64,000 nt of DNA from a bacterium (GCA_021159185.1 JAGGSH010000011.1:12307-76306), one strand, 5' to 3'; positions 46,277-64,000 are shown, counted from the first letter of the stretch. Notes: generated from the letters alone by a model not told the origin. A program made the numbers and translations.

Positions 46277-46292
46277 AATAAAAAATAAAAAT

Positions 46293-46573: not shown

Positions 46574-46704
46574 CTTCGGATAATCTCTTCGAGCTTTCCA
46601 GAATGATAATAGATACTCCATTGGCTTGCTATGGGAGAAAAATTCATTATAAAATTAAAATAGTCATAATATTCTAAGCTGTAAAAATGAATACACATTT
46701 AAAA

Positions 46705-46720
46705 TGTTCCACGTGGAACA
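46705..46720. promoter_or_regulatory. Palindromic site TGTTCCACGTGGAACA (copy 6 of 6)
   Basis: Perfect palindrome about 165 bp downstream of the integrase gene's 3' end. Confidence 0.55.
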
Positions 46721-46885
46721 TTAAGTCGTGAAACTCAAAATTTACCAACACTTTAATGTAAAATCTGTGGATAAGTTGTTTAAAAAAATATTATATAAAT
46801 TTCTTATAAGTTTTATGTCAGTTATTATTTTAATATTACCCGAGCTTCTTGACAGAATGTCTTAAAAATGGTGTGATATACTGGA

Positions 46886-47704
46886 TCAATCCAACGGGCT
46901 TTTAATGTTTTTTAGCTTAGGATTGGTAACTTTAGTATAAAGCTGTGTCGTGCGAATGTTCTGATGTTTCAGTAATTTCTGCACATATCGCACATCTACG
47001 CCATTTTCCAGCAAATGAGTGGCAAAACTGTGCCTTAACGAGTGAAAAGTGGCATCTTTCTTTATTTTAGCCAATTTTAAGGCTCTTTCAAAAACTTTCT
47101 GCGCTGTTCGCGTTGACAATTTTCCGCCACGATTACTTTCAAATAACAAATCATTTTTCTTTTTGCCAGCCATTAAACTCTGAATATCAATCTTTAACTT
47201 TTCCGGAAAAATGGCAATGCGGTCTTTTTTGCCCTTAGTGTTTTTAATATGGATAGTCAGTTCTTCTAAAGCAATATCTTTCACTTTTAAATTTATAATT
47301 TCGCTAACTCGCAATCCTGCTCCATAAGCCAAAGATAATAGCAAACGATGTTTGCTATTGGTAATAGCTAAAATAATTTTTTTAATTTCCCGGCGGGATA
47401 ATACAATAGGCAATTTCCGGCTTCTTTTGGCGAATTTTAAGTCAATTTTTTCCGGCGATTTTAAAATTTCTCTATATAAAAATTTTACTGAGTTTAACGC
47501 TAAATTAATTGTCTGGGGCGATAATTTTTTCTTTTGCTTTTTTAATAAAAATTCTCTTACGGCATCATTTTTAGATATAAATTTTTTACTTTTCACAAAT
47601 CGCAGATATTCCGCGATATAATATAAATAAGCCTTGATTGTTCCACGGCTATAATTTCGCAATAACATATTTTCTTTAATTTTTTTGAGGCTTATTTTTT
47701 GCAT
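46886..47704 (-). CDS. Tyrosine-type site-specific recombinase/integrase
   Basis: R...HxxR...Y catalytic pattern: AYGAGLRVSEIINLKVKDI, HSLRHSFATHLLENGVDVRYVQKLLKHQNIRTTQLYTKV. Confidence 0.8.
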   Translation of the reverse strand: MQKISLKKIKENMLLRNYSRGTIKAYLYYIAEYLRFVKSKKFISKNDAVREFLLKKQKKKLSPQTINLALNSVKFLYREILKSPEKIDLKFAKRSRKLPIVLSRREIKKIILAITNSKHRLLLSLAYGAGLRVSEIINLKVKDIALEELTIHIKNTKGKKDRIAIFPEKLKIDIQSLMAGKKKNDLLFESNRGGKLSTRTAQKVFERALKLAKIKKDATFHSLRHSFATHLLENGVDVRYVQKLLKHQNIRTTQLYTKVTNPKLKNIKSPLD

Positions 47705-47772
47705 ACGATGAAAATATTTGATACAGTATGATTATTATAGTGGATGTTTTTGTCCATTAATATTATACCATA

Positions 47773-47810
47773 CTTCATATAATATACAAATATTTGTATA
47801 TTATATGAAG
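47773..47810. repeat. Perfect 38-bp palindrome (cttcatataatatacaaat|atttgtatattatatgaag) just upstream of the integrase gene
   Basis: The 19-bp arms are exact reverse complements. Candidate recombinase core/arm site or operator. Confidence 0.5.
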
Positions 47811-47866
47811 ATAGTTCGCATAATAACCAGTTGTGACGAAATTCCGCTCCGCTTCATTTCATCACA

Positions 47867-48002
47867 ATGCCCGCCGTTACACGGCTATCGTGCTCCGCAG
47901 AGCTTCGCACAACAACCGTTTATGCACCGCTTACGCTACATTTTCATTTTCCCAAAAGTAAAACTTTTGTTAAAATGAAAACGTTGCATAAACGGCGGGC
48001 AT
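47867..48002. other. GC-rich long imperfect hairpin region (arms atgcccgccgtt / aacggcgggcat ~110 nt apart, nested ttttcatttt/aaaatgaaaa arms)
   Basis: Compositional island in AT-rich DNA with nested inverted repeats. Possible structured RNA or decayed foreign fragment. Confidence 0.3.
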
Positions 48003-48189
48003 TAGGCGAAATCAATTTTTACTTTTTAGATTTTGCTCCAGAGACTTTTTCTTTTTTTAAGAATAAGGAAAGAAAGTTTGATTTTCATTTTTTAATTAGG
48101 GGAGGGATAAGATAAGCGGATATTTTTTGTTCCGTACTTCCGCAAAAAATGAATTATTAAATTTTAAGTAGAAATGTTAAGATAAATTT

Positions 48190-48720
48190 ATGAATAAAAA
48201 AATCATATTTACAATCTTAATTATCATCATTGTTATTGGCGGAATATATTTATGGCAAAAAAACCAACAGAATCAAAGCCCCATTGAAAATAATTCTATT
48301 GAACAAATTCCGACTGGAACAACAAATGGCATAAATAATTTTCAACTTCTAGAAATTGCAAAGCAACATGTTCTAAGCAAACCGCAATTATATTTGAACA
48401 GAGATAAATTCGTTGCATGGGATGATTATAATGAAATAGATTCTAGTTTTTCCAAAGCCACTCCTGAATGGATTATTTCTCAAAAGTCAGATATAAGATA
48501 CATTGAACCAAATAAATATCCTGCACCGCATGACAATTTAAATGATAAATACATTGTTAGTTGGTTCTTCATTCCTAGATGCGAAGAAAATCCAAGTAGT
48601 AATAATAAACCAAATTGGTTTGATAAAAAAGGTCGTCAATGTGTTGGGGGTTATCAATTAAGTGTAATGATAAATCCTAATGAAACAATTGATTATGTAG
48701 CATTAGACGCTCTTGACTAA
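48190..48720 (+). CDS. Hypothetical N-terminally anchored or secreted protein (176 aa)
   Basis: N-terminal hydrophobic segment IIFTILIIIIVIGGIYLW. Confidence 0.45.
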   Translation: MNKKIIFTILIIIIVIGGIYLWQKNQQNQSPIENNSIEQIPTGTTNGINNFQLLEIAKQHVLSKPQLYLNRDKFVAWDDYNEIDSSFSKATPEWIISQKSDIRYIEPNKYPAPHDNLNDKYIVSWFFIPRCEENPSSNNKPNWFDKKGRQCVGGYQLSVMINPNETIDYVALDALD

Positions 48721-49628
48721 TTCGCTAATGAAAATTTGCCCTGAAAAAACTTGCTCACTATTGTTCGCACCACATTGCGTTCTCGCTTCACTTCGTTACA
48801 CTTGGGTCACTTAACAAGAAATAAAAGAAAAATTGCTTGGCTCGCAATTTTCCCAAATTTTCTCCACTACACTCCGAAAACTTCTTTTATCCCTGATGTT
48901 ATTCGCAATTCCGTTTTACTCTATTGCGAATAACGCGCGCGGATGTCTCTCTGCTGTCATACTCCATTCCGCTCCCCTCCAAGGGCGGACAAGCGCGGAA
49001 CTTCGTATAACTTCGGATCATCCGCGCGCGTTAAATATAGTTCGCCAAGTTGTAGAAGATGCGGATATTATTAACGAACTTTTCACCAGCTTTAGCAAGA
49101 AGAAGGGTCTGGCTAAAAAACTTTAATGGCTGCTATAAAAAATATCAAGGGAATTTACCTTTGCCTGCCAGTAGGAAGACTTTTGATTTCCACTTTAGTC
49201 AGATAACCAAAAAAATTGCCCCATTTTCTTAATATGGTATACTGTAAATAATTGATTAAATCATATTAAGCATTTATATAAATTATTTATCACTCAATCA
49301 ATAGAGCGCTCTCTTGATATTTATCTCAAAACTTTAACGCCTGCGAATCAAAAACAAGAAAAATTTTTAACTTTAAAAAAATATCCAAAATTACTCCATT
49401 CTCCGCAAAATATCTTAACTTGCTTGCCAGACAAGGGAAACTTGAGGCATTCAAAGAGGATAGAGACTGGCTAACTTCAAGAGAGGCTGTTGAGCGGTAT
49501 CTTAAAAACCGAACCAGAAAAAGAAAAACTATAAAATAAAAAAATCAAATTTTCTTTTATCCCTGATGTGAAATTACAAATCCACTTAACGCGACTAAAA
49601 AATTTGATAAATCTAACTAACAAATATT

Positions 49629-50501
49629 ATGAAAAAAAACGCGATAACTTTAATTTTACTGGGACTATTTTTAGTTTCATCTTTGGCCTTAGCTCAAGAA
49701 CAAGCTCCAATTCAAGAACAAGCTCCAATTCAAGAACAAGCTAAAATATATTCCGGCTTTAACAGGTTCGTAGATAATGTCAGAATGTTTTTTTCTTTCA
49801 GAGATAAAAAAGTAATGCTGGCATTGGACATTAGAGATAAAGAATTAAGCTCCGCTATTGTGAATACAAAAAATGGAGCTAATGAAAAAGCGGAAAAAAA
49901 TCTTGAAAGAGCGAGAAAGAAGCTTCAATTTATTCAAAATAAAGTCTCAAAAGATATAGCGGAAAATGTAAAAACCAATATCAATAAAACAATCAGTAAA
50001 ATCAATGAAGATAAAGATTTATCAAATAATTTTGGAACATATCTCTTAGAAGAGAAGAAAACTCAACTTACGGCAGAATTAGCTATTGAGAAAGATGATA
50101 AAAGCGGAAAAAATAAAGTTGAAATAACCGTAGACGGGGAAAACGGACAATCAAAAATTATGGAAATTGAGGGAAAAATTATGGAAATTGATAATCAAAT
50201 TAAAGAAAGAGTGATTAATAATGTTATTGAAGACGGGAATAATAATAGCGATGGCGGCCTATTTCCGGAAGTTGAAATAGATAAAGCGCCCACTGAAGAA
50301 AAGAAAGATTTCATTAAAAAAGAAATTACGGTAGAAGATGGAATTATTGATGTGGTTGAGGATAACAAAAATAGGATAGACGAGGTGTTGGAAAATAAAG
50401 AAAATGAGGATATGTCTTCAACCGTTAATAATATTGATGGCAAAATAGATGATAAAATAAATGGCGGACCCGGAGAATTGGGCGCAGTTGATAAAGATTA
50501 A
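49629..50501 (+). CDS. Secreted hypothetical protein with a [18 protein letters not shown] tandem repeat
   Basis: Signal peptide, then a direct peptide repeat from the tandem 15-bp DNA repeat at 49690-49740. Lys/Glu/Asp-rich. Confidence 0.5.
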
Positions 50502-51819: not shown

Positions 51820-54117
51820 TTATATTCTTTCCAGCGGAGCGTAGGTGGCGGAAAGTTTCTTAATTCCGGTTTTCATAAAAGCTATGGTAATAATATCATC
51901 TTGCGTGGAAATAACCACTCCTTCGCCAAAATCCGGATGGCGGACGCGCTGGCCATCGCTGTAACTCGTAACTCGGGATGGTTTGAATTCTTTTAGGTCA
52001 TGGTTATTTTGATTTGAGATTTGTTTGGGATTTGAAGTTTGGGATTTAGAATCTGTTTGGAAATTGGAAATTGGAAATTGGAAATTCCGCACAAGGTGCG
52101 GCGGTATATCATCCAAAAACCGCGATGGCGGGTTGGCTTGGGTTGATCCGAAAATTACGCGCATTTCCGCGTGGAGAAGACAGACTTTTTCTTTGGCGCG
52201 GGTAATTCCCACATACATCAGCCTTCTCTCTTCCTCCATTTCATCCGCGTTTAACATACTGCGGGAATGCGGCAGAATTCCTTCTTCTAGCCCCGCGATA
52301 AAAACAATGGGGAATTCCAAACCTTTAGCGCTGTGCAGGGTCATTAAATGAACTGTGTCTTGATTTTGGTCAATATTATCTGTGTCCGCCACCAGCGCCA
52401 CTTCTTCCAAAAATAATTCCAAAGACATATTGGCGTTTTCGCCCCGATGTTTTTCAGCTACGCTCAAAAGTTCCCGCACATTTTCTATTCGCGTCTCTCC
52501 TTCAATTCCCATTTTCTCCAAGCTAGTTTCGTAACCGCTGCCTTTAAAAATTTTCTCAATCAAATTAGCTAATCCGGCTCTGTCTTTAAAATCTCTCATT
52601 TGAAAAATAAAATCACAGAACTGCTTAATTGCTTTAATTTTAGCTTCTTTTAATTCTGAATTTTGAGGGCTGATTTTAGCGCTTGCGTCCAGTAAGTTCA
52701 GATCGTTTTCTTTGGCGAAAGCCGCCCATTTTGCTAAAGTTTTTTTTCCAATGCCCCGCCGCGGTTCGTTAATAATCCGTTCCAAAGAAATATAATCGTT
52801 TCCGTTTTGAATAACGCGGAGGTAAGCGACAATATCTTTAATTTCTTTTCTTTGATAAAATTTCAGCCCGCCGATAATGCGATAGGGGATAGATTCTTTC
52901 AGGAAAATTTCCTCTATAATTCTTGATTGGGCGTTGGTGCGGTATAAAACCGCGAAATCGGAATAATTATATTTCTTATTTTTATCGCTAACTTTATTTT
53001 TAATTTCCTCGGCAATAAATTCAGCCTCGTCTTTTTCGTCGTTAGCCTCATAAACAGCCACGGGATGCCCTTTTTTATTTTCCGTCCACACTTTCTTGTC
53101 CTTGCGGTTTACATTTTTGGAAATTATTTCATGGGCCGCGTCTAAAATAATTTGAGTAGAGCGATAATTTTGTTCCAATTTAATAACCTTGGCGCCGGGA
53201 TAATCTTTTTCAAAACTTAAAATATTTTTAATATCCGCTTGTCTAAACATATAAATTGATTGCCAGTCATCACCCACGACGCAGAGATTGCGGTGTTTTT
53301 GGGAAAGCAGTTTTACCAAAAGGTATTGGGCGTGGTTGGTATCCTGGTATTCGTCCACTAAAATATAGCGGAATAAATTTTGGTATTTTGCCAGCACTTC
53401 GGGAAATTCCTGGAATATTTTCACCGCAAGCCGTATTAAATCGTCAAAATCCAGAATATTATTTTTTTTAAGCTCTTCTTGGTAAGCGTTGTAAACTTTA
53501 GCAACAGTTTCTTCGTAAAATCCTTCCGCTTGCCGGGAAAACGCTTCCTCGTCAATAAATTTATTTTTAGCTTCGCTGATAGCGGTTAAAAATGACGCGG
53601 GATTAAATTGGTCTTTACTGATACTCAATTCTTTAAAAATTCTTTTTACTAAAGCTAATTGGTCTTGAGCGTCAAAAATATTAAAAGATTTTTTGTATCC
53701 CAGTTTGTCTATTTCCCGCCGCAAAATTCTGGCGCAAACGCTGTGGAAAGTGCCAACAGTAGGTAGTTTGTAGCTTGTAGTTTGTATCTTAGGATTTGAA
53801 AATTGAGAATTGGAAATTTTACTTGTTGCTTGCCTGCCTGCCGGCGAGGCAGGCTGCTTACTTCTTGCTTCTAACAATTTGGCAATTCTTTCCTTCATTT
53901 CTTGGGCGGCTTTGTTGGTAAAAGTTACCGCCAGAATATTAAGCGGATTTATTTTCTTCTTTTTTATTAAATAAGCCACCCGATGGGTGAGTGTTCTGGT
54001 TTTTCCCGATCCGGCTCCGGCGATAATCAAAACGGGGCCCTCTGTGGCCTTGACCGCTTCTTGTTGCGCGGAATTGAGATTTTTGAGCAGATCGTTCATA
54101 ATTTTATGATATATCAT
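51820..54117 (-). CDS. pcrA: ATP-dependent DNA helicase PcrA/UvrD family, with a repeat-derived internal insertion and a low-complexity C-terminal tail
   Basis: IIAGAGSGKTRTLTHRVAYLI (Walker A), DEYQDTN, and the other helicase motifs. The insertion QPASPAGRQATSK is encoded by the 27-bp GC hairpin also found in rpsA. The C-terminal FQFPISNFQ comes from the ggaaattggaaatt tandem repeat at 52040-52085. Confidence 0.9.
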   Translation of the reverse strand: MIYHKIMNDLLKNLNSAQQEAVKATEGPVLIIAGAGSGKTRTLTHRVAYLIKKKKINPLNILAVTFTNKAAQEMKERIAKLLEARSKQPASPAGRQATSKISNSQFSNPKIQTTSYKLPTVGTFHSVCARILRREIDKLGYKKSFNIFDAQDQLALVKRIFKELSISKDQFNPASFLTAISEAKNKFIDEEAFSRQAEGFYEETVAKVYNAYQEELKKNNILDFDDLIRLAVKIFQEFPEVLAKYQNLFRYILVDEYQDTNHAQYLLVKLLSQKHRNLCVVGDDWQSIYMFRQADIKNILSFEKDYPGAKVIKLEQNYRSTQIILDAAHEIISKNVNRKDKKVWTENKKGHPVAVYEANDEKDEAEFIAEEIKNKVSDKNKKYNYSDFAVLYRTNAQSRIIEEIFLKESIPYRIIGGLKFYQRKEIKDIVAYLRVIQNGNDYISLERIINEPRRGIGKKTLAKWAAFAKENDLNLLDASAKISPQNSELKEAKIKAIKQFCDFIFQMRDFKDRAGLANLIEKIFKGSGYETSLEKMGIEGETRIENVRELLSVAEKHRGENANMSLELFLEEVALVADTDNIDQNQDTVHLMTLHSAKGLEFPIVFIAGLEEGILPHSRSMLNADEMEEERRLMYVGITRAKEKVCLLHAEMRVIFGSTQANPPSRFLDDIPPHLVRNFQFPISNFQTDSKSQTSNPKQISNQNNHDLKEFKPSRVTSYSDGQRVRHPDFGEGVVISTQDDIITIAFMKTGIKKLSATYAPLERI

Positions 54118-54195
54118 TCCCGCCCGCCGCGGCGGACGGGAATCTGGAGTACTTATTTAGACCAGCGATTATATCCTAGATTCCCGATCAAGTCG
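54104..54195. repeat. Family-1 MITE-like element
   Basis: tcattcccgcccgccgcggcggacgggaatctggag...tcctagattcccgatcaagtcgggaatgaca. Confidence 0.7.
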
Positions 54196-54319
54196 GGAAT
54201 GACAAAAATATTTCCCACAACCATTATAGCATACTGCCAAATGAGAAAATTGTTAAATAAAAAAAGCTAAGCTTCTGCATAGAAATTTAGCTTTTTTATA
54301 TGTTACGCTGTCACTCTTT

Positions 54320-55096
54320 CTACAGTTTCTGCTCAATGTATTCCCGAAAACCGGAAACCCTTTCTTTTTCGTCCGGGTTGATTAAAAACGGCTCTACATC
54401 TTTAGCCAAGCTCTTCAGGTCAATTTCGGAAATTTTTTCCAATAACCTGCTTTTTAAATCCTGCCGATTTTTAATATTAAATTTCTCCTTTAAATATTTA
54501 TAATTAAAATCAGCCAACTCCATTAAAAAAGCAATGTCGTAGAAATCTCTGCCCTTAGCTCTTTTACGGCCAAAAACAGCTCCGACTTTCTTGGACAAAA
54601 CTATATTAATCGGCGTTAAATTAATATTTCTGAATACATCAAATTTTGTCAACAAAAAATTTTTGGAATTATAACCGATATTTTCCCGCGCCGTATCAAT
54701 CTGAATCATCATTTTCTCATTTTTCATCGGACTCAATTTACTTTCAAATAAAATATCGGAAAATTTTATGTAAGCGTGGCAAGCCAATTTATAAACGGTT
54801 CTAATTTCAATATTATATCCCTCCCGACTCAATTCTTTTTTAATTAAATCAGCCATTTCTTCAAATTCGCTTTTGTTTAGATGAAAATTATCAAAATCCA
54901 GATCTTCCGAAAATCTTCTGCCTTGGTAACAAATTCTAATGGCTGTTCCGCCTAAAAAAGACATTTTTCCGCCAAACTTGCTTTTAAATATCACATCCAA
55001 TATTTTATATTGCAGATATTCTCTTAAAATACTTTTTTCAAACCCCTGTAATTTTGGATAATACTTTTTTATCTCATTAAGATCTAACATAGGCAT
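54320..55096 (-). CDS. Nucleotidyltransferase AbiEii/AbiGii toxin family (second copy)
   Basis: KFGGKMSFLGGTAIRICYQGRRFSEDLDFD, the AbiEii (DUF1814) signature. Confidence 0.7.
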   Translation of the reverse strand: MPMLDLNEIKKYYPKLQGFEKSILREYLQYKILDVIFKSKFGGKMSFLGGTAIRICYQGRRFSEDLDFDNFHLNKSEFEEMADLIKKELSREGYNIEIRTVYKLACHAYIKFSDILFESKLSPMKNEKMMIQIDTARENIGYNSKNFLLTKFDVFRNINLTPINIVLSKKVGAVFGRKRAKGRDFYDIAFLMELADFNYKYLKEKFNIKNRQDLKSRLLEKISEIDLKSLAKDVEPFLINPDEKERVSGFREYIEQKL

Positions 55097-55691
55097 TAAT
55101 TAATTTTATCTTTTGAGTTATTTTTTTTGAGTCAAATTTTCTTAAATAGTTATTTAATTTGCCACAGCCTATTGTTTCCTTAAAAACTTCCTTATTAAGC
55201 CTTAATTCATAAACATCGTTTTTATTAACTATATCGTTCCTAAAATACAAAAAATCCAGTAAAGCTTTTTCCGGATCGGCGATTTTAAAGGAAATTTTTT
55301 CATTTTTAATTAACCTATAACCAAAAAATAGTTCTGTTTTAATATTGCGATATGAAAAGTTTCCAATTTCCGATTTTATCATTCTTGTTTTTTTTGTGGT
55401 AACGGAAGTGTACAAAAAAACAGTTTCCGGAATTAAATTATAGTAACTCAAAGCGTATTCAAGACTTAGATAAGATGGTTCGTAAAGCTTGTTGGATATA
55501 AAATTCATTTCAAAATCAGATAATTGCTTGTCGGCAAAAATATAAAAATTATTGGCTACTTTTTTCAAATAATGCTTTTTTTGCCATTCATACAAGCGGC
55601 GATGATCAAAATCGCTCTCCGCATTTTTAATATCCGATAAATGAATAATCGGATATTCCTTGAAGTGATTAGAAAAGTCAATGTATTTCAT
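55077..55691 (-). CDS. AbiEi-family antitoxin (second copy), overlapping the toxin gene by 20 nt
   Basis: Roughly 200 aa, positioned upstream of and overlapping the AbiEii gene, with the same architecture as the 38027-38635 / 37324-38037 pair. YEPSYLSLEYALSYYNLIPE parallels YSPSYISFETVLRDAGMIFQ. Confidence 0.5.
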   Translation of the reverse strand: MKYIDFSNHFKEYPIIHLSDIKNAESDFDHRRLYEWQKKHYLKKVANNFYIFADKQLSDFEMNFISNKLYEPSYLSLEYALSYYNLIPETVFLYTSVTTKKTRMIKSEIGNFSYRNIKTELFFGYRLIKNEKISFKIADPEKALLDFLYFRNDIVNKNDVYELRLNKEVFKETIGCGKLNNYLRKFDSKKITQKIKLINAYVRS

Positions 55692-55762
55692 TTCTATTTT
55701 TAGTTATTTTTAACTAATTTCTGAAATAAGTATAACACCGGCTAAAGCAATGGTCAAGTTTT

Positions 55763-56668
55763 TCACCGCTTTCTGTGAAATTTTTGATAAACTCCTTCCA
55801 AGCGACGGTTAGTTATATGGGTGTAAATTTGGGTGGTGGTGATAGACGAATGCCCCAGCATTTCTTGGACACTGCGGATATCGGCGCCGTTGGCCAATAA
55901 ATCAGTGGCAAAAGTGTGGCGTAAAGTATGCGGATGGACATTTTTTATAATCCCGGCTTTAATCGCGTATTCTTTCACTATTCTTTGGACGCTTCTGGGC
56001 GTTAATCTTAAATCAGCGTCTTTGGGAATTTTTTTCACAACGCGGACGAATAATGCCGGGTCAGTGTCTATTCTCTCTTCAAGATATTTTCTTATCGCTT
56101 CTTTGGCTGTGTCGGAGATAAAAACAATTCTGGTTTTTCTGCCTTTTCCCTTAACGCTAAAATTTTGCTTTTCCAGATTGATTTTATCCCGGTCTATATT
56201 TACCAGCTCCGAAACGCGCAGGCCGGCTGAAAAAAGAAGCTCCAAAATGGCGCGGTCGCGCAAAGATTTTAAATCCGTTCCATTGGCTGAATTCAAAAGG
56301 CGATCCACTTCTTCCGGCTCCAAGAATTCCACTTCGCGTTGCGAACTTTTCCCTATTTCCACTTTTTCCGCTGAAAGCGTTTCAATGTCCTGCTTCGCCA
56401 AATATTTTAAAAACCCGCGGAGAACGATGACATAATTATTTTGAGTAACTTGTTTTAAGCAATTTCCCTTTGCGTCTTGGCGGCGGTTAAGGTAAAGTCG
56501 GTACTTTTTTACCAAGCCTAAATCAATATCGCCGGGATTTTTAATTTTAGACCAATTTAAAAAATAAATTAAACAGCGATGATAATTTTCCACTGTTTTG
56601 GGTGAGCGGCTTAATTCAATTTCCAGATGCTCTAAAAATTCTATGAGAAGAGTTTTGATGTTTGACAT
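55763..56668 (-). CDS. Tyrosine recombinase, XerC/XerD-like
   Basis: N-terminal SAM-like core-binding domain. LRDRAILELLFSAGLRVSELVNI...HTLRHTFATDLLANGADIRSVQEMLGHSSITTTQIYTHI. Confidence 0.8.
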   Translation of the reverse strand: MSNIKTLLIEFLEHLEIELSRSPKTVENYHRCLIYFLNWSKIKNPGDIDLGLVKKYRLYLNRRQDAKGNCLKQVTQNNYVIVLRGFLKYLAKQDIETLSAEKVEIGKSSQREVEFLEPEEVDRLLNSANGTDLKSLRDRAILELLFSAGLRVSELVNIDRDKINLEKQNFSVKGKGRKTRIVFISDTAKEAIRKYLEERIDTDPALFVRVVKKIPKDADLRLTPRSVQRIVKEYAIKAGIIKNVHPHTLRHTFATDLLANGADIRSVQEMLGHSSITTTQIYTHITNRRLEGVYQKFHRKR

Positions 56669-56699
56669 ATTTCTATGAAGGATCTCTACGAATTACTTT

Positions 56700-56820
56700 T
56701 TTCTTCTCCCCCTCCTCTTTGAGGAGGGGATTGAGGGGTGGTGTTATTTCCACCAGCGATATTTCACACCCCTCCGCCCTACGGGCACCTCCCCTCAAAG
56801 AGGGGAGGAAGTAAAAGCTA
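56700..56820. repeat. GC-rich palindromic repeat (family 2-like: ctccccctcctctttgaggaggggattgagggg ... cccctcaaagaggggagg)
   Basis: Long inverted-repeat structure related to the gggga/tcccc hairpins at 22741-22800 and 22965-23012. Confidence 0.6.
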
Positions 56821-56939
56821 ACTTTATCTTACCCCAATCTGCCGAAAATAAAAAGAAATTTGCTGAAAGCAAAAATATTCCCGCTTTTTAGCTTATTCAA
56901 GCTAAAATTACGCGCTGTGAATAAGTCCGCAAAAATTAT

Positions 56940-56967
56940 TTGACAAATTTTCAGCATCTCCTATACT
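56940..56967 (+). promoter_or_regulatory. Sigma-70-like promoter TTGACAAATTTT...TATACT upstream of the T4SS-like cluster
   Basis: ttgacaaattttcagcatctcctatact. The -35 region, 12 bp downstream of it, the spacer length and the -10 match the 27892-27919 promoter. Confidence 0.5.
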
Positions 56968-57113
56968 ACCCGTTAAGCGTAAAAGTTAGAGTTTTAGCCG
57001 ATAGGCGGATAGCAATATAGGCAACTGTGAAAAAACGCTTTAAAGCTAAAACTAAATGAAAGATAAATATTATTAGTAGACAAATCCTTGTTTGTCATTC
57101 AAGACCGGAACGA

Positions 57114-58271
57114 TTGAGTCTGAAGCTGAAAGATCTTCAAACTAAAATTTATCACTGGCAAGCGAATTTCGCCAGCTTGGTTAAAGAACGCAGGACCATA
57201 AAATTGCTGCATGTTTTGAGAAATTATTCTGCTTTAGCGGTAGTAGTTTCCAGCGCCATTTTGGTAATAGCTACCAATATGGCGTCCGGCAAAGAGTCTC
57301 GCGGTTTTTTGTTTGGACACTGGAACGACAGTGAAGAAGTTGAAAGCCCTCGGAAAAATAAGATTAGCGGACAAATAAACCGCGAAAGCGGATTGGTTTT
57401 CGTTCCTTTGGCGCAGGCTAGCGCCGCGGTAGATGTGGAGCTTAAAAAAGATGACGAGGAAGAAGTTTCCATTATTCAGGGAAATCAAGGGCAAGTAATG
57501 GTAGCTAATAACAGTCCTGTTTTAAAAGATCCTAAAGAAGGTGAAGGGGTGATTATCTATGAAGTGGAAGAAGGGGATACAGTGAGTTCTATTGCCATCG
57601 CTCACGGAATTACCGTAAATACTATTCTTTGGGCTAATGACATAGATGATATTGATTCTATAATGCCCGGAGACAAGATATTTATTCTTCCCGTAGCCGG
57701 ATTATCTTATACTGTCAAAAAAGGCGATTCGCTTAAAAGCATTGCCAAAGAATATGAAGCTGATGAGAAAAAAATTATCGCTTTCAATGATCTTCCGGCC
57801 AATGGAAAAATAGAAGCCGGGCAGGAAATAATTATACCCGGCGGGAAGAAAGAAATTCCGCTAAGCGCTACTGAATCTTCAAGAATCGCGCGAAGGCAAT
57901 ATGCCACTCCTTCCGGAGGCGCTCCCGCAGTTTCCGGCTGGAAAAAGCTGGATGGGAAAGCCGGCACGGGACACAAATTTCCTTATGGTTATTGCACCTG
58001 GTATGTTTCCCAAAAACGATATATTCCATGGGGAGGGAATGCCGGAACTTGGCTGTATCACGCTAAAGTTAGCGGATACAAAACAAGCAAAACGCCAAGA
58101 AAAGGCTCTATTATCGTAACTTCCGAATCTTGGTGGGGGCATGTCGGCATTGTGGAAAAAATAGACAAGGGAACAGTCACTATTTCCGAAATGAACCACC
58201 GCGGCTGGGGCAAAGTTTCCCGCCGAACACTATCTTCTAAGAGTAGAGTGATTAAAGGATATATTCGTTAG
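57114..58271 (+). CDS. Membrane-anchored peptidoglycan hydrolase: two LysM domains plus a C-terminal CHAP domain
   Basis: TTG start. TM ALAVVVSSAILVIATNMASG. LysM YEVEEGDTVSSIAIAHGITVNTILWAN and YTVKKGDSLKSIAKEYEADEKKIIAFN. CHAP with GYCTWYV (Cys) ... WWGHVGIV (His). Confidence 0.75.
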   Translation: MSLKLKDLQTKIYHWQANFASLVKERRTIKLLHVLRNYSALAVVVSSAILVIATNMASGKESRGFLFGHWNDSEEVESPRKNKISGQINRESGLVFVPLAQASAAVDVELKKDDEEEVSIIQGNQGQVMVANNSPVLKDPKEGEGVIIYEVEEGDTVSSIAIAHGITVNTILWANDIDDIDSIMPGDKIFILPVAGLSYTVKKGDSLKSIAKEYEADEKKIIAFNDLPANGKIEAGQEIIIPGGKKEIPLSATESSRIARRQYATPSGGAPAVSGWKKLDGKAGTGHKFPYGYCTWYVSQKRYIPWGGNAGTWLYHAKVSGYKTSKTPRKGSIIVTSESWWGHVGIVEKIDKGTVTISEMNHRGWGKVSRRTLSSKSRVIKGYIR

Positions 58272-58410
58272 AATTTTTAATTTTGTAATTTTCAATTTTA
58301 AATAAAGGCAGGCGTTAAGCCTGTCTTTATGTTTCATACAACGCTTCGTGAATTCTAAAATCGTGGTATAATAAAATAAATTTTTTGTACTATTCGCACT
58401 AGATAAAATT

Positions 58411-58842
58411 ATGCCTGAGCAAAATGAAGATCGGAGAGATATTATTAGGAAAACATCCTTGTCTTTGGAAAGAATTGCTAGCGGACCTAAATGGAAGATG
58501 CCCGTGGAAGCGTTCAGGTTAGCTCGGGAATACAGAAGACAAATTAACGAACATAAAAACGCCCCATGGTTAATTATAATTTTAGTATCGGCATGCGTTG
58601 ATTTTTTAGGTGATGCCATTTTTATAGGATATTTCATTAAGCCTTTTTTATTTTTTGCTCTTTGGGGAAAAGGAGCATGGAAAGCTAAAATATTTATTAG
58701 ATTTCTTTTATTTATTGAACTTGTTCCCGGATTGAACTTGCTTCCATTGCAAACATTAGCAGCGGTATACGCATGGAAACATACTGCCCAAAGAGCCAAT
58801 GAAGCTGAAAAAAAATTAGCGAAAATTAAAAAGAATATATAA
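58411..58842 (+). CDS. Small membrane protein (143 aa, 3 TM)
   Basis: Hydrophobic helices. Lies between the CHAP hydrolase and the VirB6-like gene. Confidence 0.4.
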   Translation: MPEQNEDRRDIIRKTSLSLERIASGPKWKMPVEAFRLAREYRRQINEHKNAPWLIIILVSACVDFLGDAIFIGYFIKPFLFFALWGKGAWKAKIFIRFLLFIELVPGLNLLPLQTLAAVYAWKHTAQRANEAEKKLAKIKKNI

Positions 58843-58896
58843 TCTACATCCATATCACCAGTTTTCTTTTTTCCATTTTCTGGTATAATAAATGCG

Positions 58897-60948
58897 ATGA
58901 GACAAAAAACAAAAAGCAAAAAAATTAAAAAGAATAAAGTTTTAAAAAGAGCGCTGGCTTTCTTTTGCTTTTTTATTTTTGCTTTTTCTTTATTGAATTT
59001 AAATTTGGCTTTTTCGGATTTTTCAGGCAGTGGTTTGGATTTTTCTATTGTTAATGAGGCTAATGCAGGAACAGAACATATAGATTTAGCTGAAGAAAGT
59101 GGTGGCTGGTGGCCTTTTGATAACCCTTTTGTGGTGGGCATTAACTGGATACTATACGGATTTTTTAGGCTTCTTGCGCTGTTGCTTGGCATAGCCGGTT
59201 TTCTTTTTGACTGGGCGATAGACGCCAATAATATCCGGGATGTTATTCATCGGCAAGCTATTTATGACGCTTGGAAAATGGTAAGGGATTTTCTTAATTT
59301 GGGATTTATTTTAATTCTTTTATATTCGGCTTTTTGCACTATATTTCAAATAGAAAAGTATCATCTTAAAAAAATTCTTTTGATGCTAGTGCTAATGGCG
59401 CTTTTGGTTAATTTCAGTTTTCCCATTTCCCGCTTTATCGTGGACGCTTCCAATGTGACTATGTATTATTTTCTGAATTCAGCTTTTAACCAGGAAGAAA
59501 CGAAAAGTTTTTCCGCCGGACTTACGGGACCTACCGGAATCGCTGATATGCTAGTTCCCAGAGAAAGTGATGGAGATTTTGATTCAGGCGGTTCTACTGT
59601 CCAGATAATGATGGCGATATTTTTCATATTTTGTTTGATGATCACTATGTTTGTGATCGCGGCCATATTTGTAATCCGCATAGTGGCGCTGGCCGTGTTG
59701 ATTATTTTTTCTTCCATCGGATTCGTGGCGGCGGTTTTCCCGGATACTAAATCGTTTGCCAATCAATGGTGGTCTAATCTTTTTAAGTACGCTTTTACTG
59801 GACCCATTTTAGTTTTTATGATGCTGATCGCCTATAATTTAATGAGAGAAATGGCCGCGGAGGGAACAAAAGAATCAATGAAGCAATACGCGCAAAATTA
59901 TGGGCACAATCCGAGCTTATTAGCCAATGCCGCTTATTTCTTTATACCTATAGTTATTCTTTGGATGGGTATTATCGCCACGCAAAAAATGGGTATTGCC
60001 GGGGCCGACTGGACGGTGAAAAAAGCTACCGGCGCCCGCGACTGGTTCGCGAAGATTCCGGTGAATACAGCAAGAGGGGCGGGGATGGCTACTGGAATCC
60101 CAGGTGGAGCAAAACAAGCAACTGAATATTATAAAAAGAAAGGTTTACCTGGCCGTTTAGGAAAAATATGGGGTTTGAGAGGAACAGACAAAAGAGAAGA
60201 ATCGGAAGCTAAATTTGAGGGGGCTTTTGTTGGAGCTGGCAAAGGGGAAACTCCGTGGGGAAGTTTGAAAGAAATGAAAAAAAGATGGGAAGGCGGAAGT
60301 AAGAGTGCTCGCGACAAACGCATCGGAGAAAAAGTTAAAGAGAATAAAGATCTCAATGTCAGTGCTTCTCAGTTATCTCAAGATCTTGGCTCTGAAAACG
60401 AAGTGGCCAAAACAGCTGCCGCTATTACTATGGCTGAAAAAGGATTGCTAACTGATATTGACAGATTTAAAAAAGCGCTGGAAGCGGTCGGAAATGATGA
60501 AGACCTAAAGAAGAAAATTATAGACAAAGCGCCGAAAGAAATAACCAGAGATGTGATAAAAGATGGTAAAAGTTTAAATACGGCGCTGACAGCGGCAGTT
60601 ATAAAAGATGAAAAGGGAAATGAAGATAAAGAAGCTACGAAGAGAGTGCAAGAAACAATCAAAGGCAAAATTAAAGCGGACAATAATGTAAAGATCCTGA
60701 TTGACTATGATGAAAGATATGGCGGTAAATCCAAAGATGATGCTTATCGCGACAATTTGGAAAAAATGTCCGCGGAAAATCTAGCTAAACAGAAAAATTT
60801 GCTTGATACCCAAGAATTTCATGAGTTCTTCTTGCGAGATAAAGCTTCTGGAGGGCTAAACGAGGATCCCGATTTCATTGCAAAGACTGCCGAAAATATG
60901 AATATGAAAGACAGGCTGGATTGGAGGAAGAGAGGATATAAGATTTAG
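58897..60948 (+). CDS. VirB6/TrbL-like polytopic membrane protein with a hydrophilic C-terminal domain (T4SS inner-membrane component candidate)
   Basis: 683 aa. Signal/TM, an extracytoplasmic loop, then 6 or more TM helices (GFFRLLALLLGIAGFLFDW, LGFILILLYSAFCTIF, LLMLVLMALLVNF, IMMAIFFIFCLMITMFVIAAIFVIRIVALAVLIIFSSIGFVAAVF, GPILVFMMLIAYNLM), and a ~300-aa charged C-terminal tail. This architecture is typical of VirB6/TrbL/PrgH-like proteins. Confidence 0.45.
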   Translation: MRQKTKSKKIKKNKVLKRALAFFCFFIFAFSLLNLNLAFSDFSGSGLDFSIVNEANAGTEHIDLAEESGGWWPFDNPFVVGINWILYGFFRLLALLLGIAGFLFDWAIDANNIRDVIHRQAIYDAWKMVRDFLNLGFILILLYSAFCTIFQIEKYHLKKILLMLVLMALLVNFSFPISRFIVDASNVTMYYFLNSAFNQEETKSFSAGLTGPTGIADMLVPRESDGDFDSGGSTVQIMMAIFFIFCLMITMFVIAAIFVIRIVALAVLIIFSSIGFVAAVFPDTKSFANQWWSNLFKYAFTGPILVFMMLIAYNLMREMAAEGTKESMKQYAQNYGHNPSLLANAAYFFIPIVILWMGIIATQKMGIAGADWTVKKATGARDWFAKIPVNTARGAGMATGIPGGAKQATEYYKKKGLPGRLGKIWGLRGTDKREESEAKFEGAFVGAGKGETPWGSLKEMKKRWEGGSKSARDKRIGEKVKENKDLNVSASQLSQDLGSENEVAKTAAAITMAEKGLLTDIDRFKKALEAVGNDEDLKKKIIDKAPKEITRDVIKDGKSLNTALTAAVIKDEKGNEDKEATKRVQETIKGKIKADNNVKILIDYDERYGGKSKDDAYRDNLEKMSAENLAKQKNLLDTQEFHEFFLRDKASGGLNEDPDFIAKTAENMNMKDRLDWRKRGYKI

Positions 60949-60968
60949 ATTATTTAAAGTTTCCGTTT

Positions 60969-61052
60969 TGTCATTCTCGTGAAAACGGGAATCCAGGATG
61001 GAATCACTAACTTCAGAAATTACTCTGGATTCCCGCCTGCGCGGGAATGACA
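60969..61052. repeat. Family-1 MITE-like element
   Basis: tgtcattctcgtgaaaacgggaatccaggatggaatcactaacttcagaaattactctggattcccgcctgcgcgggaatgacat. Confidence 0.75.
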
Positions 61053-61088
61053 TAGAGACAGAAATAATAGCAGCAAATTAAGAAAATT

Positions 61089-62204
61089 ATGTTTAAAGAA
61101 ACAAAAAATTATTCCAGCTTTTCTCCGATGATTGTTCCTGTTGCGGAAAATGAAACAGAGGAAGAGTTTTTGCTAAGATGGAAAAAATTTGACGCGTTGC
61201 CAAAAGAAATAAAAAGCAAACTCTCCGCCAGTGAAACACTGAGAGAAATGGAGAATGTAAAACGGATTTTTAATCTGGAGTTGTCGCAAGTAGCCAGTAT
61301 TTCCAGATTAATTAGAAGCTATTATTTCGGCGAAGTGAAAATAGAAAATTTTGTATCCATTCTGTCAAAAGAAATGGAAATTGATTTATCCAAAGCCCAA
61401 GAAATAGCCAAGCATATTACGGAAAAAATAATTAACCAAAGAATACAGAGTAATAGTGGCGCCGGCGACGAAGCTATCGTCAAACTTCCCATTCTTGAAG
61501 CTCTTAAAAAATATCCTAAGTTAGGCAACCAGAGAATTTCCGTCAATAATATAAAGCTCAAAATTTTTCCCGATCCAGTCAGGCCTTCCATTAAAAACTG
61601 GATCGCCGATTATCGCCAAGTTATGGGGACCGGAAATTACGGAGCCATAGAGAAAAGCAATTATTTATTTCACGGTGAGAACGCCAAAAAACTGAATTCC
61701 CAAGAACTGCAAAAGCTGTCGCTGATTTTAAAATCGCTGGACGGCCATATTCCTCTGACTATTAACGCCAAAGATCAGCAAGTAGTATTTCCGTTATTGG
61801 AAGCAAATGAAGAAGCAGCAAGAAGCAAGCATTATGCGACAAGCAAAGAATCAGAAATTAAAACGCCAAGGATGAAATATTTAGCAAAAGAAAGTAATGA
61901 ACCAGAAATTAGAAAAATAATGCCAAACAGCCAAACAGCCAAACAGCCAAATAAAAATAATACCGGCAGTTTCCGTTTTTCATCTCCCCAAACCCTTGAA
62001 TCGGAAAAGGAAGGAAAAAAGAAAATAAAAGTGGACAAGAAAGAGAAAATAGATAAAGTAAATAAAATAAATAAAGCAAGTAAGGTAAGCAAAAATCCTC
62101 GCTACTATCAAATTTATCCCATGGGAATTAATCATAATAGCGAAAAAGAAGAAAGCCGTCCAAAAACAAAAGGGAATGTCGTAAATCTTAGAGAAGATTT
62201 TTAA
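61089..62204 (+). CDS. Hypothetical soluble protein (371 aa) with a Lys-rich repetitive C-terminus
   Basis: Contains a caaacagccaaacagccaaacagcc tandem repeat (QTAKQPNK). Sits in an operon position between the VirB6-like and PrgI-like genes. Confidence 0.4.
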   Translation: MFKETKNYSSFSPMIVPVAENETEEEFLLRWKKFDALPKEIKSKLSASETLREMENVKRIFNLELSQVASISRLIRSYYFGEVKIENFVSILSKEMEIDLSKAQEIAKHITEKIINQRIQSNSGAGDEAIVKLPILEALKKYPKLGNQRISVNNIKLKIFPDPVRPSIKNWIADYRQVMGTGNYGAIEKSNYLFHGENAKKLNSQELQKLSLILKSLDGHIPLTINAKDQQVVFPLLEANEEAARSKHYATSKESEIKTPRMKYLAKESNEPEIRKIMPNSQTAKQPNKNNTGSFRFSSPQTLESEKEGKKKIKVDKKEKIDKVNKINKASKVSKNPRYYQIYPMGINHNSEKEESRPKTKGNVVNLREDF

Positions 62205-62208
62205 TATT

Positions 62209-62616
62209 ATGTTATTCAATGTCCCGCAATTTATCAATGTTGAAGATAAAATAGTCGGACCTTTTACTGGCAAGCAACTATTGTGGCTGGCCGGGCTGGG
62301 AGCCGTTCTGCTTGTTTTATGGAATGTTCTGGAAAAAGCTGTCTTTATTGTTGCCGCTATTCCCATATCCTTAATTTTTTTAGCTTTTACATTTTACCGC
62401 CCATACAATCAGTCACTCGTAAAATTCGTGGCGGCGGGAATCATGTTTCTTTTTCGTCCCAAAACCTATGTCTGGGAAAGAAAAACACTTAAAGTTAAAG
62501 TTCTTCCGGTTAAGAAAAATAAACAAGATTCGGAAATGAATAAAAATAAAGTTATAACTCCCGAAGAAATTAAAGAGCTGGCGGAAACATTAGATAGCAG
62601 GGGAGGGGAGAAATAA
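62209..62616 (+). CDS. PrgI/VirB3-like small two-TM membrane protein immediately upstream of the VirB4-like gene
   Basis: 135 aa with two adjacent TM helices (LLWLAGLGAVLLVLW, FIVAAIPISLIFLAFTFY). Starts 5 nt after the previous stop. Identified by position and topology only. Confidence 0.4.
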   Translation: MLFNVPQFINVEDKIVGPFTGKQLLWLAGLGAVLLVLWNVLEKAVFIVAAIPISLIFLAFTFYRPYNQSLVKFVAAGIMFLFRPKTYVWERKTLKVKVLPVKKNKQDSEMNKNKVITPEEIKELAETLDSRGGEK

Positions 62617-62647
62617 CAAAGAGGGATAGGTAAGAGGAAAATAATAT

Positions 62648-63340
62648 ATGGAATTTCTACACTCAAAAAAATTAGCTTTCGGCGGAAGCGGAAACAGTAC
62701 CCAGAAATATGTGGATGTGAAAGAAGTGAAAGACGATGTGATTATTTTGAAAAACGGGTCGCTAAGAGCTGTCCTTTTGGTTTCCTCTATTAATTTTGAC
62801 CTTAAATCAAGTGAGGAACAGGACGCCATAATCAGCCAATACCAGAATTTTCTTAATTCGCTTGACTTTCCCATTCAGATAATGATTAGTTCGCGGAAAT
62901 TTAATATAAAGCCTTATCTAGACCTTTTGGAAAAAAAAGAAGTTCAGCAGGAAAACGAGCTTTTAAAATTTCAGATCTCTGAATATAAAAAGTTTATTGA
63001 AAATTTGATAAAAGTTTCCAATATCGTTTCTAAATTTTTCTATATTGTGGTTCCTTTTTATCCCGTGGAGAGCCATGAGCAGGGGGCGCTGGACAAAATT
63101 ATGGCTCTATTTAATTCCCGCCAGATTGTGGCTGAAAACAAAGTCTTGTTTGAAACTTACAAAAACCAATTATGGCAAAGAGTGGACCATATTAACGCTG
63201 GGCTTAGCGGAATCGGAGTGCGTGTGACTTCGCTCAAGACCGAAGAAATAATTGAGCTTTTATATAATTCCTACAATCCTTCCGTTTTCACGAATGCCAT
63301 AATAAATAAAATAGAAGAAGTTGATCTTGAAAAACAGTAG
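62648..63340 (+). CDS. VirB4/TrbE-like ATPase, N-terminal fragment (CagE_TrbE_VirB-type), truncated before a MITE
   Basis: DDVIILKNGSLRAVLLVSSINFDLKSSEEQDAIISQYQNFLNSLDFPIQIMISSRKFNIKPYL follows the VirB4 N-terminal pattern (xDGSlxaxlxlxGxxFELxSxeE...Ln.L...iqi). No Walker A, as expected for a fragment. Confidence 0.5.
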   Translation: MEFLHSKKLAFGGSGNSTQKYVDVKEVKDDVIILKNGSLRAVLLVSSINFDLKSSEEQDAIISQYQNFLNSLDFPIQIMISSRKFNIKPYLDLLEKKEVQQENELLKFQISEYKKFIENLIKVSNIVSKFFYIVVPFYPVESHEQGALDKIMALFNSRQIVAENKVLFETYKNQLWQRVDHINAGLSGIGVRVTSLKTEEIIELLYNSYNPSVFTNAIINKIEEVDLEKQ

Positions 63341-63367
63341 ACTTGCCTAAATTAAGAAACTCTCTTT

Positions 63368-63453
63368 TGTCATTCCCGGCTTGATCGGGAATCTAGGATG
63401 GAATTGCTGGCTTTAGAAATTACTCTAGATTCCCGCTTTCGCGGGAATGACAT
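63368..63453. repeat. Family-1 MITE-like element between two VirB4-like ORFs
   Basis: gtcattcccggcttgatcgggaatctaggatggaattgctggctttagaaattactctagattcccgctttcgcgggaatgacat. Confidence 0.75.
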
Positions 63454-63498
63454 AAAAAAGGGAAGGAAATGACATAGAAAAAATGAAGATGATAAAAT

Positions 63499-64000
63499 AT
63501 GTTTAAATTACGAAAACAAAAAAATATTGAAAACAGCGCTCCCGACAGCGAAGAAATTTATCGCCGGGGAGTGGCTAAAGTGGAGGGGCTTATCGCTCCC
63601 GCGGCTTTAAGAATCAATGCCAATTATATTCAAGTGGGAGAAATATGCGCCCGAACGATTTTCGTAATCGCTTATCCCCATTATCTTGGCACCAATTGGT
63701 TTTCTCCTATCGTCAATGTTGATTTCTCTTTAGACATTGCTATGTTCATCCATCCGATGGAAACTGCCGATGTTTTAAAAAATTTGCGGAAGAGCGCCAC
63801 CCAAGTTCAATCTACTATCCACTTGGAAGAAGAAAGCGGCAAAATCCGCGATCCTATGCTGGAAACAGCCATGAAAAATATTGAAGAACTGCGCACCAAA
63901 CTTCAGCAGGGAACTGAAAAATTTTTCCGTTTCGGGCTTTATATGACCGTTTATGGGAAAAGTGTTAAAGAATTGGACAAAACCACTCGATCGATAGAAG
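63499..64000 (+). CDS. VirB4/TrsE/PrgJ-like ATPase, continuation of the N-terminal domain (partial; runs off the window end)
   Basis: Manual translation gives MFKLRKQKN...GLIAPAALRINANYIQVGEICARTIFVIAYPHYLGTNWFSPIVNVDFSLDIAMFIHPMETADVLKNLRKSATQVQSTIHLEEESGKIRDPMLETAMKNIEELRTKLQQGTEKFFRFGLYMTVYGKSVKELDKTT. The y.RtlfV..YP.yl...Wl.pl and LD...fI.P blocks are typical of the VirB4 N-terminal domain. The ORF is still open at 64000. Confidence 0.55.
   Translation, partial: MFKLRKQKNIENSAPDSEEIYRRGVAKVEGLIAPAALRINANYIQVGEICARTIFVIAYPHYLGTNWFSPIVNVDFSLDIAMFIHPMETADVLKNLRKSATQVQSTIHLEEESGKIRDPMLETAMKNIEELRTKLQQGTEKFFRFGLYMTVYGKSVKELDKTTRSIE

Follow-up and report, generated by a model that had tools for sequence, protein, structure and literature searches.

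The secretion systems closest to the one described here are the type IV secretion systems (T4SSs) of the Patescibacteria, a group that accounts for much of bacterial diversity and whose members live attached to other microbes; few machines have been shown to be essential to this way of life, and the T4SS is one. Our subject is a plus-strand run of genes at 57114-64000 of a 64-kb stretch of bacterial DNA (GCA_021159185.1, JAGGSH010000011.1:12307-76306; these 64,000 nucleotides are called the window below). It encodes a T4SS with a VirB4 ATPase and extends for ~7 kb beyond the window. The portion of a recent survey that we draw on here (Quinonero-Coronel et al. 2025, PMC12102498) reports VirB4 in 2,417 of 3,035 Patescibacteria genomes, as a monophyletic clade nested within the MPF_FATA systems. 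In that portion TrsD is the most abundant associated component; PrgI/VirB3, VirB6 and VirB2-like pilins are found near virB4, as are VirB1-like CHAP/LysM enzymes, mainly in Paceibacteria; relaxases are almost absent; rnpA, ksgA and dnaA are frequent neighbours of virB4; and an ancient origin from a monoderm conjugative element is thought probable. In Southlakia epibionticum the T4SS cluster is essential for epibiotic growth by transposon sequencing (Tn-seq), and the part of that study cited here recognises neither a coupling protein nor a relaxase in it (Wang et al. 2023, PMC10633639). Reviews call the role and substrate of the Saccharibacteria T4SS unknown, with effector delivery or import suggested (PMC11665869, PMC12857230).

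The block in the window is, very probably, another member of this group: a vertically inherited, chromosomal Patescibacteria-clade T4SS, derived from MPF_FATA, in a Moraniibacteriota-like bacterium of the candidate phyla radiation. Judged by its sequence, the locus matches the published systems in every respect tested, except that a VirB2-like pilin went undetected. As in the clade members described in the cited parts of PMC12102498 and PMC10633639 (Southlakia SEML1_0006-0019), it is chromosomal and vertically inherited, its VirB4 has MPF_FATA affinity and is directly preceded by a separate TrsD, PrgI/VirB3 and VirB6 are adjacent, a VirB1-like CHAP/LysM hydrolase is present (noted for Paceibacteria), and no relaxase or type IV coupling protein (T4CP) lies nearby; rnpA is found ~5.5 kb upstream and ksgA in the same window. 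It differs from them in that no pilin or pilin array is detectable here, which in the Saccharimonadia is prominent and essential, and in that the locus is rearranged, with miniature inverted-repeat transposable elements (MITEs) inside it. A set of proteins, termed here p371, p143, p215, p843, p379 and the TSP3/p333 pair, has no description that we met in the cited parts of these two papers.

A wider comparison with MPF_FATA systems, namely pCF10 (prgH-I-J-K), pGO1/pSK41 (trsC-D-E) and the Clostridioides conjugative transposon (CD1110), finds a shared VirB6/PrgH-like protein, PrgI/TrsC, a separate TrsD, VirB4 (PrgJ/TrsE/CD1110) and a CHAP hydrolase (PrgK/TrsG-like). In contrast to those systems, no relaxase, oriT-processing gene or coupling protein was found here, neither a PrgB-type adhesin nor a VirB8-like PrgL/TraM was detected, and the locus, rather than being carried by a plasmid or an integrative and conjugative element (ICE), is in synteny with housekeeping genes across species. 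This kind of T4SS has already been described, and nothing in the locus is categorically new. What it documents is the Moraniibacteriota version, with a split TrsD/VirB4, an extended VirB6 and its partner p371, and a CPBP-like protease next to an immunoglobulin (Ig)-like anchored protein; the modest novelty lies in the conserved, lineage-specific accessory genes.

The sequence scanned for T4SS and mobility genes was the window plus 5.6 kb downstream in its parent contig (locus L001); the relaxase and T4CP profile scans covered window open reading frames (ORFs) of at least 120 aa and those 5.6 kb. For relatives, VirB6 homologues were aligned and one genome per GTDB species was then scanned. A VirB6 relative is encoded by 220 species genomes, and 80 of these loci, each with 10-kb flanks, were examined; nearly all come from metagenome-assembled genomes of Moraniibacteriota, Parcubacteria or Patescibacteria. 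Synteny counts rest on comparing the window proteins with all ORFs of the 80 loci by phmmer and jackhmmer. The closest relative is L085, with a VirB6 that is 71% identical; that of L084 is 63% identical.

The operon opens with a membrane-anchored LysM-LysM-CHAP peptidoglycan hydrolase (57204-58271, plus strand; LysM 2.9e-24, CHAP 3e-17), whose ORF is open from a TTG at 57114, while the public gene call begins at 57204. A transmembrane (TM) scan places a TM segment at its N-terminus, and the enzyme is a functional analogue of the VirB1/PrgK type. After p143, to which we return below, comes a VirB6/TrbL-like extended polytopic channel subunit of 683 aa (58897-60948, plus; PF04610 32 bits, cutoff 25.9), with seven predicted TM segments followed by a hydrophilic C-terminal tail of ~300 aa (TM scan). 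It has 226 homologues, mainly in Moranbacteria and Parcubacteria. Next are p371 (61089-62204, plus), an orphan soluble protein of 371 aa without a family match, in which the N-terminal ~240 residues are structured and the tail disordered, and a PrgI/VirB3-like protein of 135 aa with two TM segments (62209-62616, plus; PF12666 39 bits, cutoff 27), which is the membrane anchor for VirB4.

The ATPase is encoded in two parts. The first is a TrsD/TraC-like protein of 230 aa (62648-63340, plus), the VirB4 N-terminal domain as an ORF of its own, with profile matches to NCBIfam TrsD (1.9e-7), VirB4_plasma (positions 88-259), CD1110 (positions 2-117) and the TraC-like PF26593. The second is the VirB4 ATPase gene, whose 5' part occupies 63499-64000 (plus) and which continues past the window in L001 to a full length of 606 aa. 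This protein matches NCBIfam conju_CD1110 over profile positions 178-730 (359 bits, cutoff 325) as well as DUF87 and P-loop_TraG, and its Walker A (AKSGAGKS) and Walker B (MVVVDEAW) motifs are both intact. Its closest solved structure is the VirB4 C-domain of a Firmicute, Thermoanaerobacter (4ag5, 1e-51), against 2e-8 for the proteobacterial TrwK of R388, and its best plasmid-encoded matches, at 29-37% identity, are on Gram-positive replicons. The CD1110, 4ag5 and plasmid matches indicate a machine of the monoderm (MPF_FATA) type. The initial annotation had laid out this region as a MITE, an AbiEi/AbiEii pair, a XerD-like recombinase, a GC-rich palindrome and a promoter, followed by the LysM-LysM-CHAP enzyme, a small membrane protein, VirB6/TrbL, a 371-aa protein and PrgI. 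ORF mapping and profile and repeat searches recover each of these in its place, and the two proteins on which its T4SS assignment turned, at 58897-60948 and 62209-62616, match PF04610 and PF12666 above the gathering cutoffs. Its comparison with Gram-positive-type T4SS operons holds through the TrbL, PrgI, TrsD/TraC-like and CD1110-type VirB4 matches. Its VirB4 is present too, as the two ORFs just described rather than one.

The small membrane protein p143 (58411-58842, plus; 143 aa, two TM segments by TM scan) lies in the gap between the CHAP gene and VirB6. Single-pass phmmer searches match it in L027, L045, L067 and L080, in each case between VirB4 and p215, and its jackhmmer family holds the same VirB4-p215 position in ~45 loci. 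By these matches p143 appears to be relocated here from the post-VirB4 position that it has in most relatives. A 161-aa ORF between CHAP and VirB6 in L084 was considered as a homologue of p143 and ruled out, there being no similarity. The idea that p143 is a VirB2-like pilin is unsupported: neither it nor 35 members of its family match the pilin families PF04956 or PF18895, and p143 has no other Pfam match and no match to a PDB sequence. The ORF map leaves no other free small ORF in the operon, and no VirB2-like pilin was detected near virB4 by the map or by the PF04956/PF18895 scan of p143 and those 35 proteins.

Conservation of the block among relatives identifies it as a core chromosomal locus and not an ICE. 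VirB6 is followed by p371 in 73 of 74 loci, and the order p371-PrgI-TrsD-VirB4 is kept in 41 of the 64 loci with enough downstream sequence, usually continuing with a p143-like gene, p215, p843 and sometimes p379. Upstream of VirB6, a minus-strand xer gene diverges from a plus-strand CHAP gene in 30 of 61 loci from different species; in these 30 the LysM-LysM-CHAP gene adjoins both Xer and VirB6, and in 25 of them uvrD is present too. The composition of the block is native: its GC content is 38.5% against 37.8% for the window, and its tetranucleotide distance to the window is 0.120, compared with a mean of 0.132 for all windows of equal size. Distances between UvrD proteins are correlated with those of VirB6 (Mantel r 0.87), CHAP (0.92), Xer (0.93) and VirB4 (0.90), all with p=0.001. 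Public contigs, the longest of them 141.7 kb, encode a VirB6 protein identical to that of the window, and the same proteins are present on contigs of independent samples.

Signs of mobility were searched for in the same sequence. No relaxase family was found among the scanned ORFs of the window or in the 5.6 kb downstream, and no T4CP (VirD4/TcpA) in either, the sole P-loop_TraG/DUF87 match being VirB4 itself. The other ORFs of the window are housekeeping genes, encoding FeoB, KsgA, FtsH, TilS, Gmk, S1, GyrA, RecQ, a CCA-adding enzyme, UvrD, rubrerythrin and RnpA. The block is not flanked by att-like direct repeats; the direct repeats present consist of dispersed MITEs and of 16-33-mers within ORFs, at the level expected by chance. 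The region 57114-64000 has no nucleotide match to any plasmid. Thus a relaxase with oriT, a T4CP, an integrase at an edge with att sites, and variable or foreign content, the features by which an ICE would be recognised, are all missing from the sequence seen. The initial annotation had joined the integrase, AbiE genes, MITE and T4SS into one integrative or conjugative island, and this does not survive the conservation of the block in relatives and its native composition. The foreign GC content that it considered is not seen (38.5% against 37.8%), tetranucleotide usage is native, the VirD4/TraG and relaxase genes it looked to downstream are absent from the 5.6 kb there, and the attL/attR direct repeats were not found. 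Its other suggestion, host interaction in an episymbiont with a small genome, agrees with the parts of the Patescibacteria T4SS literature cited here (PMC10633639, PMC12102498).

Several points weigh against the reading of the block as an inherited Patescibacteria-clade T4SS serving an epibiotic life. The gene order is permuted in 23 of the 64 loci, and about half of the loci have no Xer/CHAP directly upstream. The genes in the Mantel comparison are physically linked, and co-inheritance with uvrD, for which the correlations argue, would on its own still be compatible with an ancient element that has since become fixed. Neither a VirB2-like pilin nor VirB8 was detected in the locus, the extracellular part of the machine is conjecture, and the link of p143 to the post-VirB4 family is at low identity (12-36%). 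The ~71 kb seen belong to a genome of probably ~1 Mb, so that a VirD4 or a relaxase could lie elsewhere; VirD4 homologues distant from virB4 are common in Patescibacteria according to the cited part of PMC12102498. Finally, we infer the function of the T4SS by extrapolation from the Tn-seq data for the Saccharibacterium Southlakia, a member of another class of the phylum.

With neither relaxase nor coupling protein in the cluster, this T4SS most likely serves an epibiotic lifestyle rather than conjugation. On the model of homologous Gram-positive T4SSs, the LysM-LysM-CHAP enzyme would open the peptidoglycan locally, and PrgI/VirB3 and the extended VirB6 would make the membrane translocon. The VirB4 ATPase, in its two parts (the TrsD-like N-domain and the CD1110-type motor), would power assembly and transport, while p371, p143, p215 and p843 may complete the machine at the cell surface. 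The machine would, on contact with a host bacterium, export proteins to it or import material from it, in the service of an epibiotic lifestyle.

The second of these directions can be stated more specifically, as a reverse T4SS that would import host DNA, nucleotides or other macromolecules for a nucleotide-auxotrophic bacterium, comparable to ComB of Helicobacter pylori or the archaeal Ced system. Import has been raised for Saccharibacteria, in which the comEC competence machinery is dispensable and the T4SS essential (PMC11665869), and the lack of a relaxase or T4CP in our scans fits any role other than conjugation. VirB4 does weakly match the NCBIfam Ced import ATPases CedB (2.4e-14) and CedD, but these matches fall far below that to CD1110 (52.9 against 359 bits), the locus holds no DNA-binding or nuclease component, and the direction of transport is unreadable from sequence. 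We therefore treat import as a tentative possibility that deserves some weight; it falls under the best explanation as a sub-hypothesis and does not truly compete with it.

Far less probable is that an inherited T4SS of this kind is present here in a decaying or inactive state. Such decay would account for the MITEs in the operon, of which two copies with hairpins of about -40 kcal/mol are found, for a VirB4 in two ORFs, and for the displacement of p143, TSP3 and p333 relative to most relatives, p143 by relocation and the other two by detachment. All T4SS ORFs are, however, intact and of full length compared with their orthologues, Walker A and Walker B are intact, the MITEs are confined to intergenic gaps, and the same protein sequences recur on contigs of independent samples. 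As for VirB4, TrsD is a separate ORF directly before it in 46 of 46 relatives, and the split is for this reason ancestral. The gap between the two ORFs is 158 nt here and -32 to 179 nt in relatives. The possibility that a MITE had split VirB4 was considered and ruled out on the same count, the MITE merely lying in the gap.

The least probable account, which we reject, is that the region is an ICE or the remnant of one, with the recombinase as integrase, AbiE as stabilisation or defence cargo and the T4SS as its mating-pair-formation module: a tyrosine recombinase, a toxin-antitoxin (TA) pair and a complete-looking Gram-positive-type T4SS do lie within 10 kb, VirB4 does pass the cutoff of the conjugal-transfer ATPase family CD1110, and Patescibacteria T4SSs were probably derived long ago from a monoderm conjugative element (PMC12102498, in the part cited), but the T4SS block and Xer keep their synteny with uvrD in dozens of species, the GC content and the tetranucleotide usage are both native, 71 kb contain no relaxase or T4CP, att repeats and plasmid DNA matches are lacking, the recombinase is by score like XerC/D/A and not a phage or ICE integrase, and the AbiE pair is missing in nearly all relatives that retain Xer and the T4SS. 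The proximity of a recombinase, a TA pair and a T4SS is not enough to make a region an ICE.

For the part of the machine that contacts the host, the accessory genes offer concrete candidates. Downstream of VirB4 in L001 are p215, a polytopic protein of 215 aa, then p843 and the TolB-like p379 (379 aa, with an N-terminal TM segment), and after these a convergent RpfB-like gene. The CPBP/Rce1-like family PF02517 is matched by 17 of 38 members of the p215 family; p215 of the window organism scores 22.4 bits, exactly at the cutoff, and matches the NCBIfam archaeomyxosortase MrtA (CPBP) weakly, with 31.7 bits against a cutoff of 200. The 843-aa p843 has an N-terminal signal or TM segment and a C-terminal TM segment, and its 474 homologues are all unannotated. 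Its predicted structure (pLDDT 77.8) is beta-rich, and Foldseek matches it to arrays of Ig/cadherin-like domains (titin, Dscam, protocadherins, Hoc and an ice-binding adhesin). At the C-terminus a conserved K[YF]LAAxxSY[IV]P[AS]S, with no Cys in the motif, precedes a TM helix and a charged tail.

The p215 gene is always directly upstream of p843, and from this constant adjacency we propose a relationship of sorting protease and substrate, like that of myxosortase with MYXO-CTERM; cleavage of p843 by p215 is, as an analogy, purely hypothetical. The MrtX/MrtA system (PMC11980579) shares the arrangement of a CPBP-like protease gene beside a C-terminally anchored surface protein, but the p843 motif is without the invariant Cys that defines MYXO-CTERM, and the MrtA score of p215 is far below the cutoff. 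A broader proposal, which we consider doubtful, is that in the T4SSs of Moraniibacteriota and Parcubacteria a lineage-specific surface module has replaced the pilin/adhesin module, with p215 processing the anchor of p843 and with p143 and the cytosolic p371 as obligatory subunits. If true, p215 and p843 would be a new pair of sorting enzyme and substrate within a host-contacting secretion machine.

Two further secreted proteins are likely associated with the T4SS. A TSP3-repeat protein (16903-17925, plus) and p333, of 333 aa (17931-18932, plus), have orthologues immediately upstream of VirB6 in 22-26 relatives; in the window they adjoin KsgA and UbiA ~40 kb away. Their position in relatives suggests that they belong to the system and have become detached from it here. 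Members of the p333 family match nothing in Pfam or the PDB. A second synteny class comprises 22 loci in which ComM, an RpfB-like gene, KsgA, UbiA (minus strand), the TSP3-repeat protein and a secreted protein of ~340 aa precede VirB6, and the window orthologues of KsgA, UbiA, the TSP3 protein and p333 are found at 13.4-18.9 kb. This displacement implies that the T4SS neighbourhood of an ancestor was broken up by rearrangement. Other rearrangements were seen among the relatives. In L006, L008, L028, L049, L078 and L081 the two operon halves have exchanged places around uvrD/xer, giving the order VirB4, a p143-like gene, ~4 kb of other sequence, UvrD, Xer (minus strand), CHAP, VirB6 and p371. 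At 6621-8020 of L084, three genes of the riboflavin pathway (Pfam families Flavokinase, Lum_binding and DMRL_synthase) interrupt the T4SS operon between VirB6 and the p371 homologue.

Upstream of the operon, the Xer-type tyrosine recombinase (55763-56668, minus strand; Phage_integrase, E 8e-45) belongs to the chromosome, where it is conserved beside the CHAP gene, and is not an ICE integrase. It reaches ~247 bits with TIGR02225/TIGR02224 (XerD/XerC), below their cutoffs of 330-335, and 244.6 bits with XerA_Arch, above the cutoff of 220. The catalytic residues R-K-H-R-H-Y can be read in its sequence, and its GC content of 40.8% is core-like.

The only element near the T4SS that looks inserted is the AbiEi/AbiEii pair. 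It consists of an AbiEii-family nucleotidyltransferase toxin (54320-55096, minus; PF08843 E 1e-17, 65 bits against a cutoff of 22.5) and an AbiEi-like antitoxin or regulator (55077-55691, minus; NCBIfam TAA_AbiEi 1.2e-6, 28 bits, below the cutoff of 150). AbiE-type gene pairs typically overlap, and here the overlap is 20 nt. The likeness to type IV AbiE TA systems extends to the AbiEii family, the overlapping AbiEi-like gene upstream and a promoter-like site of its own (55757-55729), but the AbiEi match is weak and below its cutoff. On the 3' side of AbiEii a hairpin followed by a T-run, read by eye, resembles a terminator; the terminator scan reported none. The GC content of the pair is 29.7%, against 37.8% for the window. 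AbiE genes are found in none of the 80 relatives' loci and are also absent at this position in L084. We considered a strain-specific insertion and ruled it out on finding the same pair in L085, with AbiEii 93% and the AbiEi-like protein 91% identical; there VirB6 is 71%, Xer 86% and CHAP 90% identical to the window proteins. Being shared with L085, the pair marks a clade-level (genus-level) insertion between uvrD and xer, and it is without functional link to the T4SS. A second AbiEii/AbiEi pair, at 37324-38635 (minus), adjoins RecQ (AbiEii PF08843 4e-19; AbiEi-like NCBIfam 1.4e-8), and the two pairs are unrelated at the BLAST level.

The non-coding elements around the operon are of several kinds. 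The MITE-like palindromic repeat is a ~97-nt family (GTCATTCCCG...CGGGAATGAC) with a copy at 54132-54208 (minus), full copies at 20192, 34434, 51623, 60961 and 63361, and additional half copies; its core pattern matches six times in the window, against none expected. The family is absent from the 80 more distant relatives' loci and present in L085. Two copies lie in the operon: one in the VirB6-p371 gap (60961-61057, plus; hairpin -40 kcal/mol, z -5.7) and one in the TrsD-VirB4 gap (63361-63457, plus; -39.5 kcal/mol, z -6.3). As no T-run follows them on the plus strand they are perhaps not terminators, and their hairpins may instead be stabilising, processing or attenuating elements, like repetitive extragenic palindromic (REP) sequences. 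The first ATG of the uvrD ORF (54115-54117, minus) falls inside a MITE terminal repeat, and the true start is possibly the second Met, six codons downstream.

In the divergent intergenic region between xer and CHAP lies a GC-rich palindromic repeat (56704-56815, no strand assigned) of the dispersed repeat family D12, with related copies at 22753 and 26228. Both this palindrome and the MITE are genome-wide repeats, not island boundaries. Beyond it, upstream of the T4SS operon, is a putative sigma-70-like promoter, TTGACA-16-TATACT (56940-56967, plus), identified by consensus match; it agrees at 11 of 12 positions and is the best match in 54-64 kb.

Short GC-rich palindromic repeats are also found inside housekeeping ORFs, without interrupting them. 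A 59-nt repeat has two copies that are 100% identical, at 13229-13287 (the end of a Wzy_C gene) and 14168-14226 (inside KsgA, the Pfam match of which ends at residue 240). A 30-nt repeat is found at 25946-25975, in the gene for ribosomal protein S1, and at 53826-53855, in UvrD, and a 42-nt repeat at 22753-22794 lies inside TilS. In UvrD the repeat inserts 'SKQPASPAGRQATSK' into a loop that varies, and is shorter, across 23 orthologues, which recalls the in-frame palindromic elements of Rickettsia.

A replication origin in the divergent xer/CHAP region was considered and rejected: the cumulative GC skew does reach its minimum at ~56 kb, but across the whole window the skew changes with the strand of the genes. 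The only two perfect DnaA boxes of the window are at 43948 and 46766, within a patch of low GC content (43600-50500, 32-34%) that starts beside tRNA-Arg and tRNA-Ala genes (43635-43807). This patch encodes a TrmB-like regulator (45437-46276) and a second tyrosine recombinase (46886-47704; 32% GC), which is integron-integrase/XerA-like and 34% identical to Xer. It also contains six copies of the palindrome ATTGTTCCACGTGGAACAAT (45161-46734) and a 42-nt inverted repeat (43920-43961 and 46761-46802) that carries both DnaA-box 9-mers. As a candidate integrated element or replication-related region, the patch at 43600-50500 is more convincing than the T4SS block.

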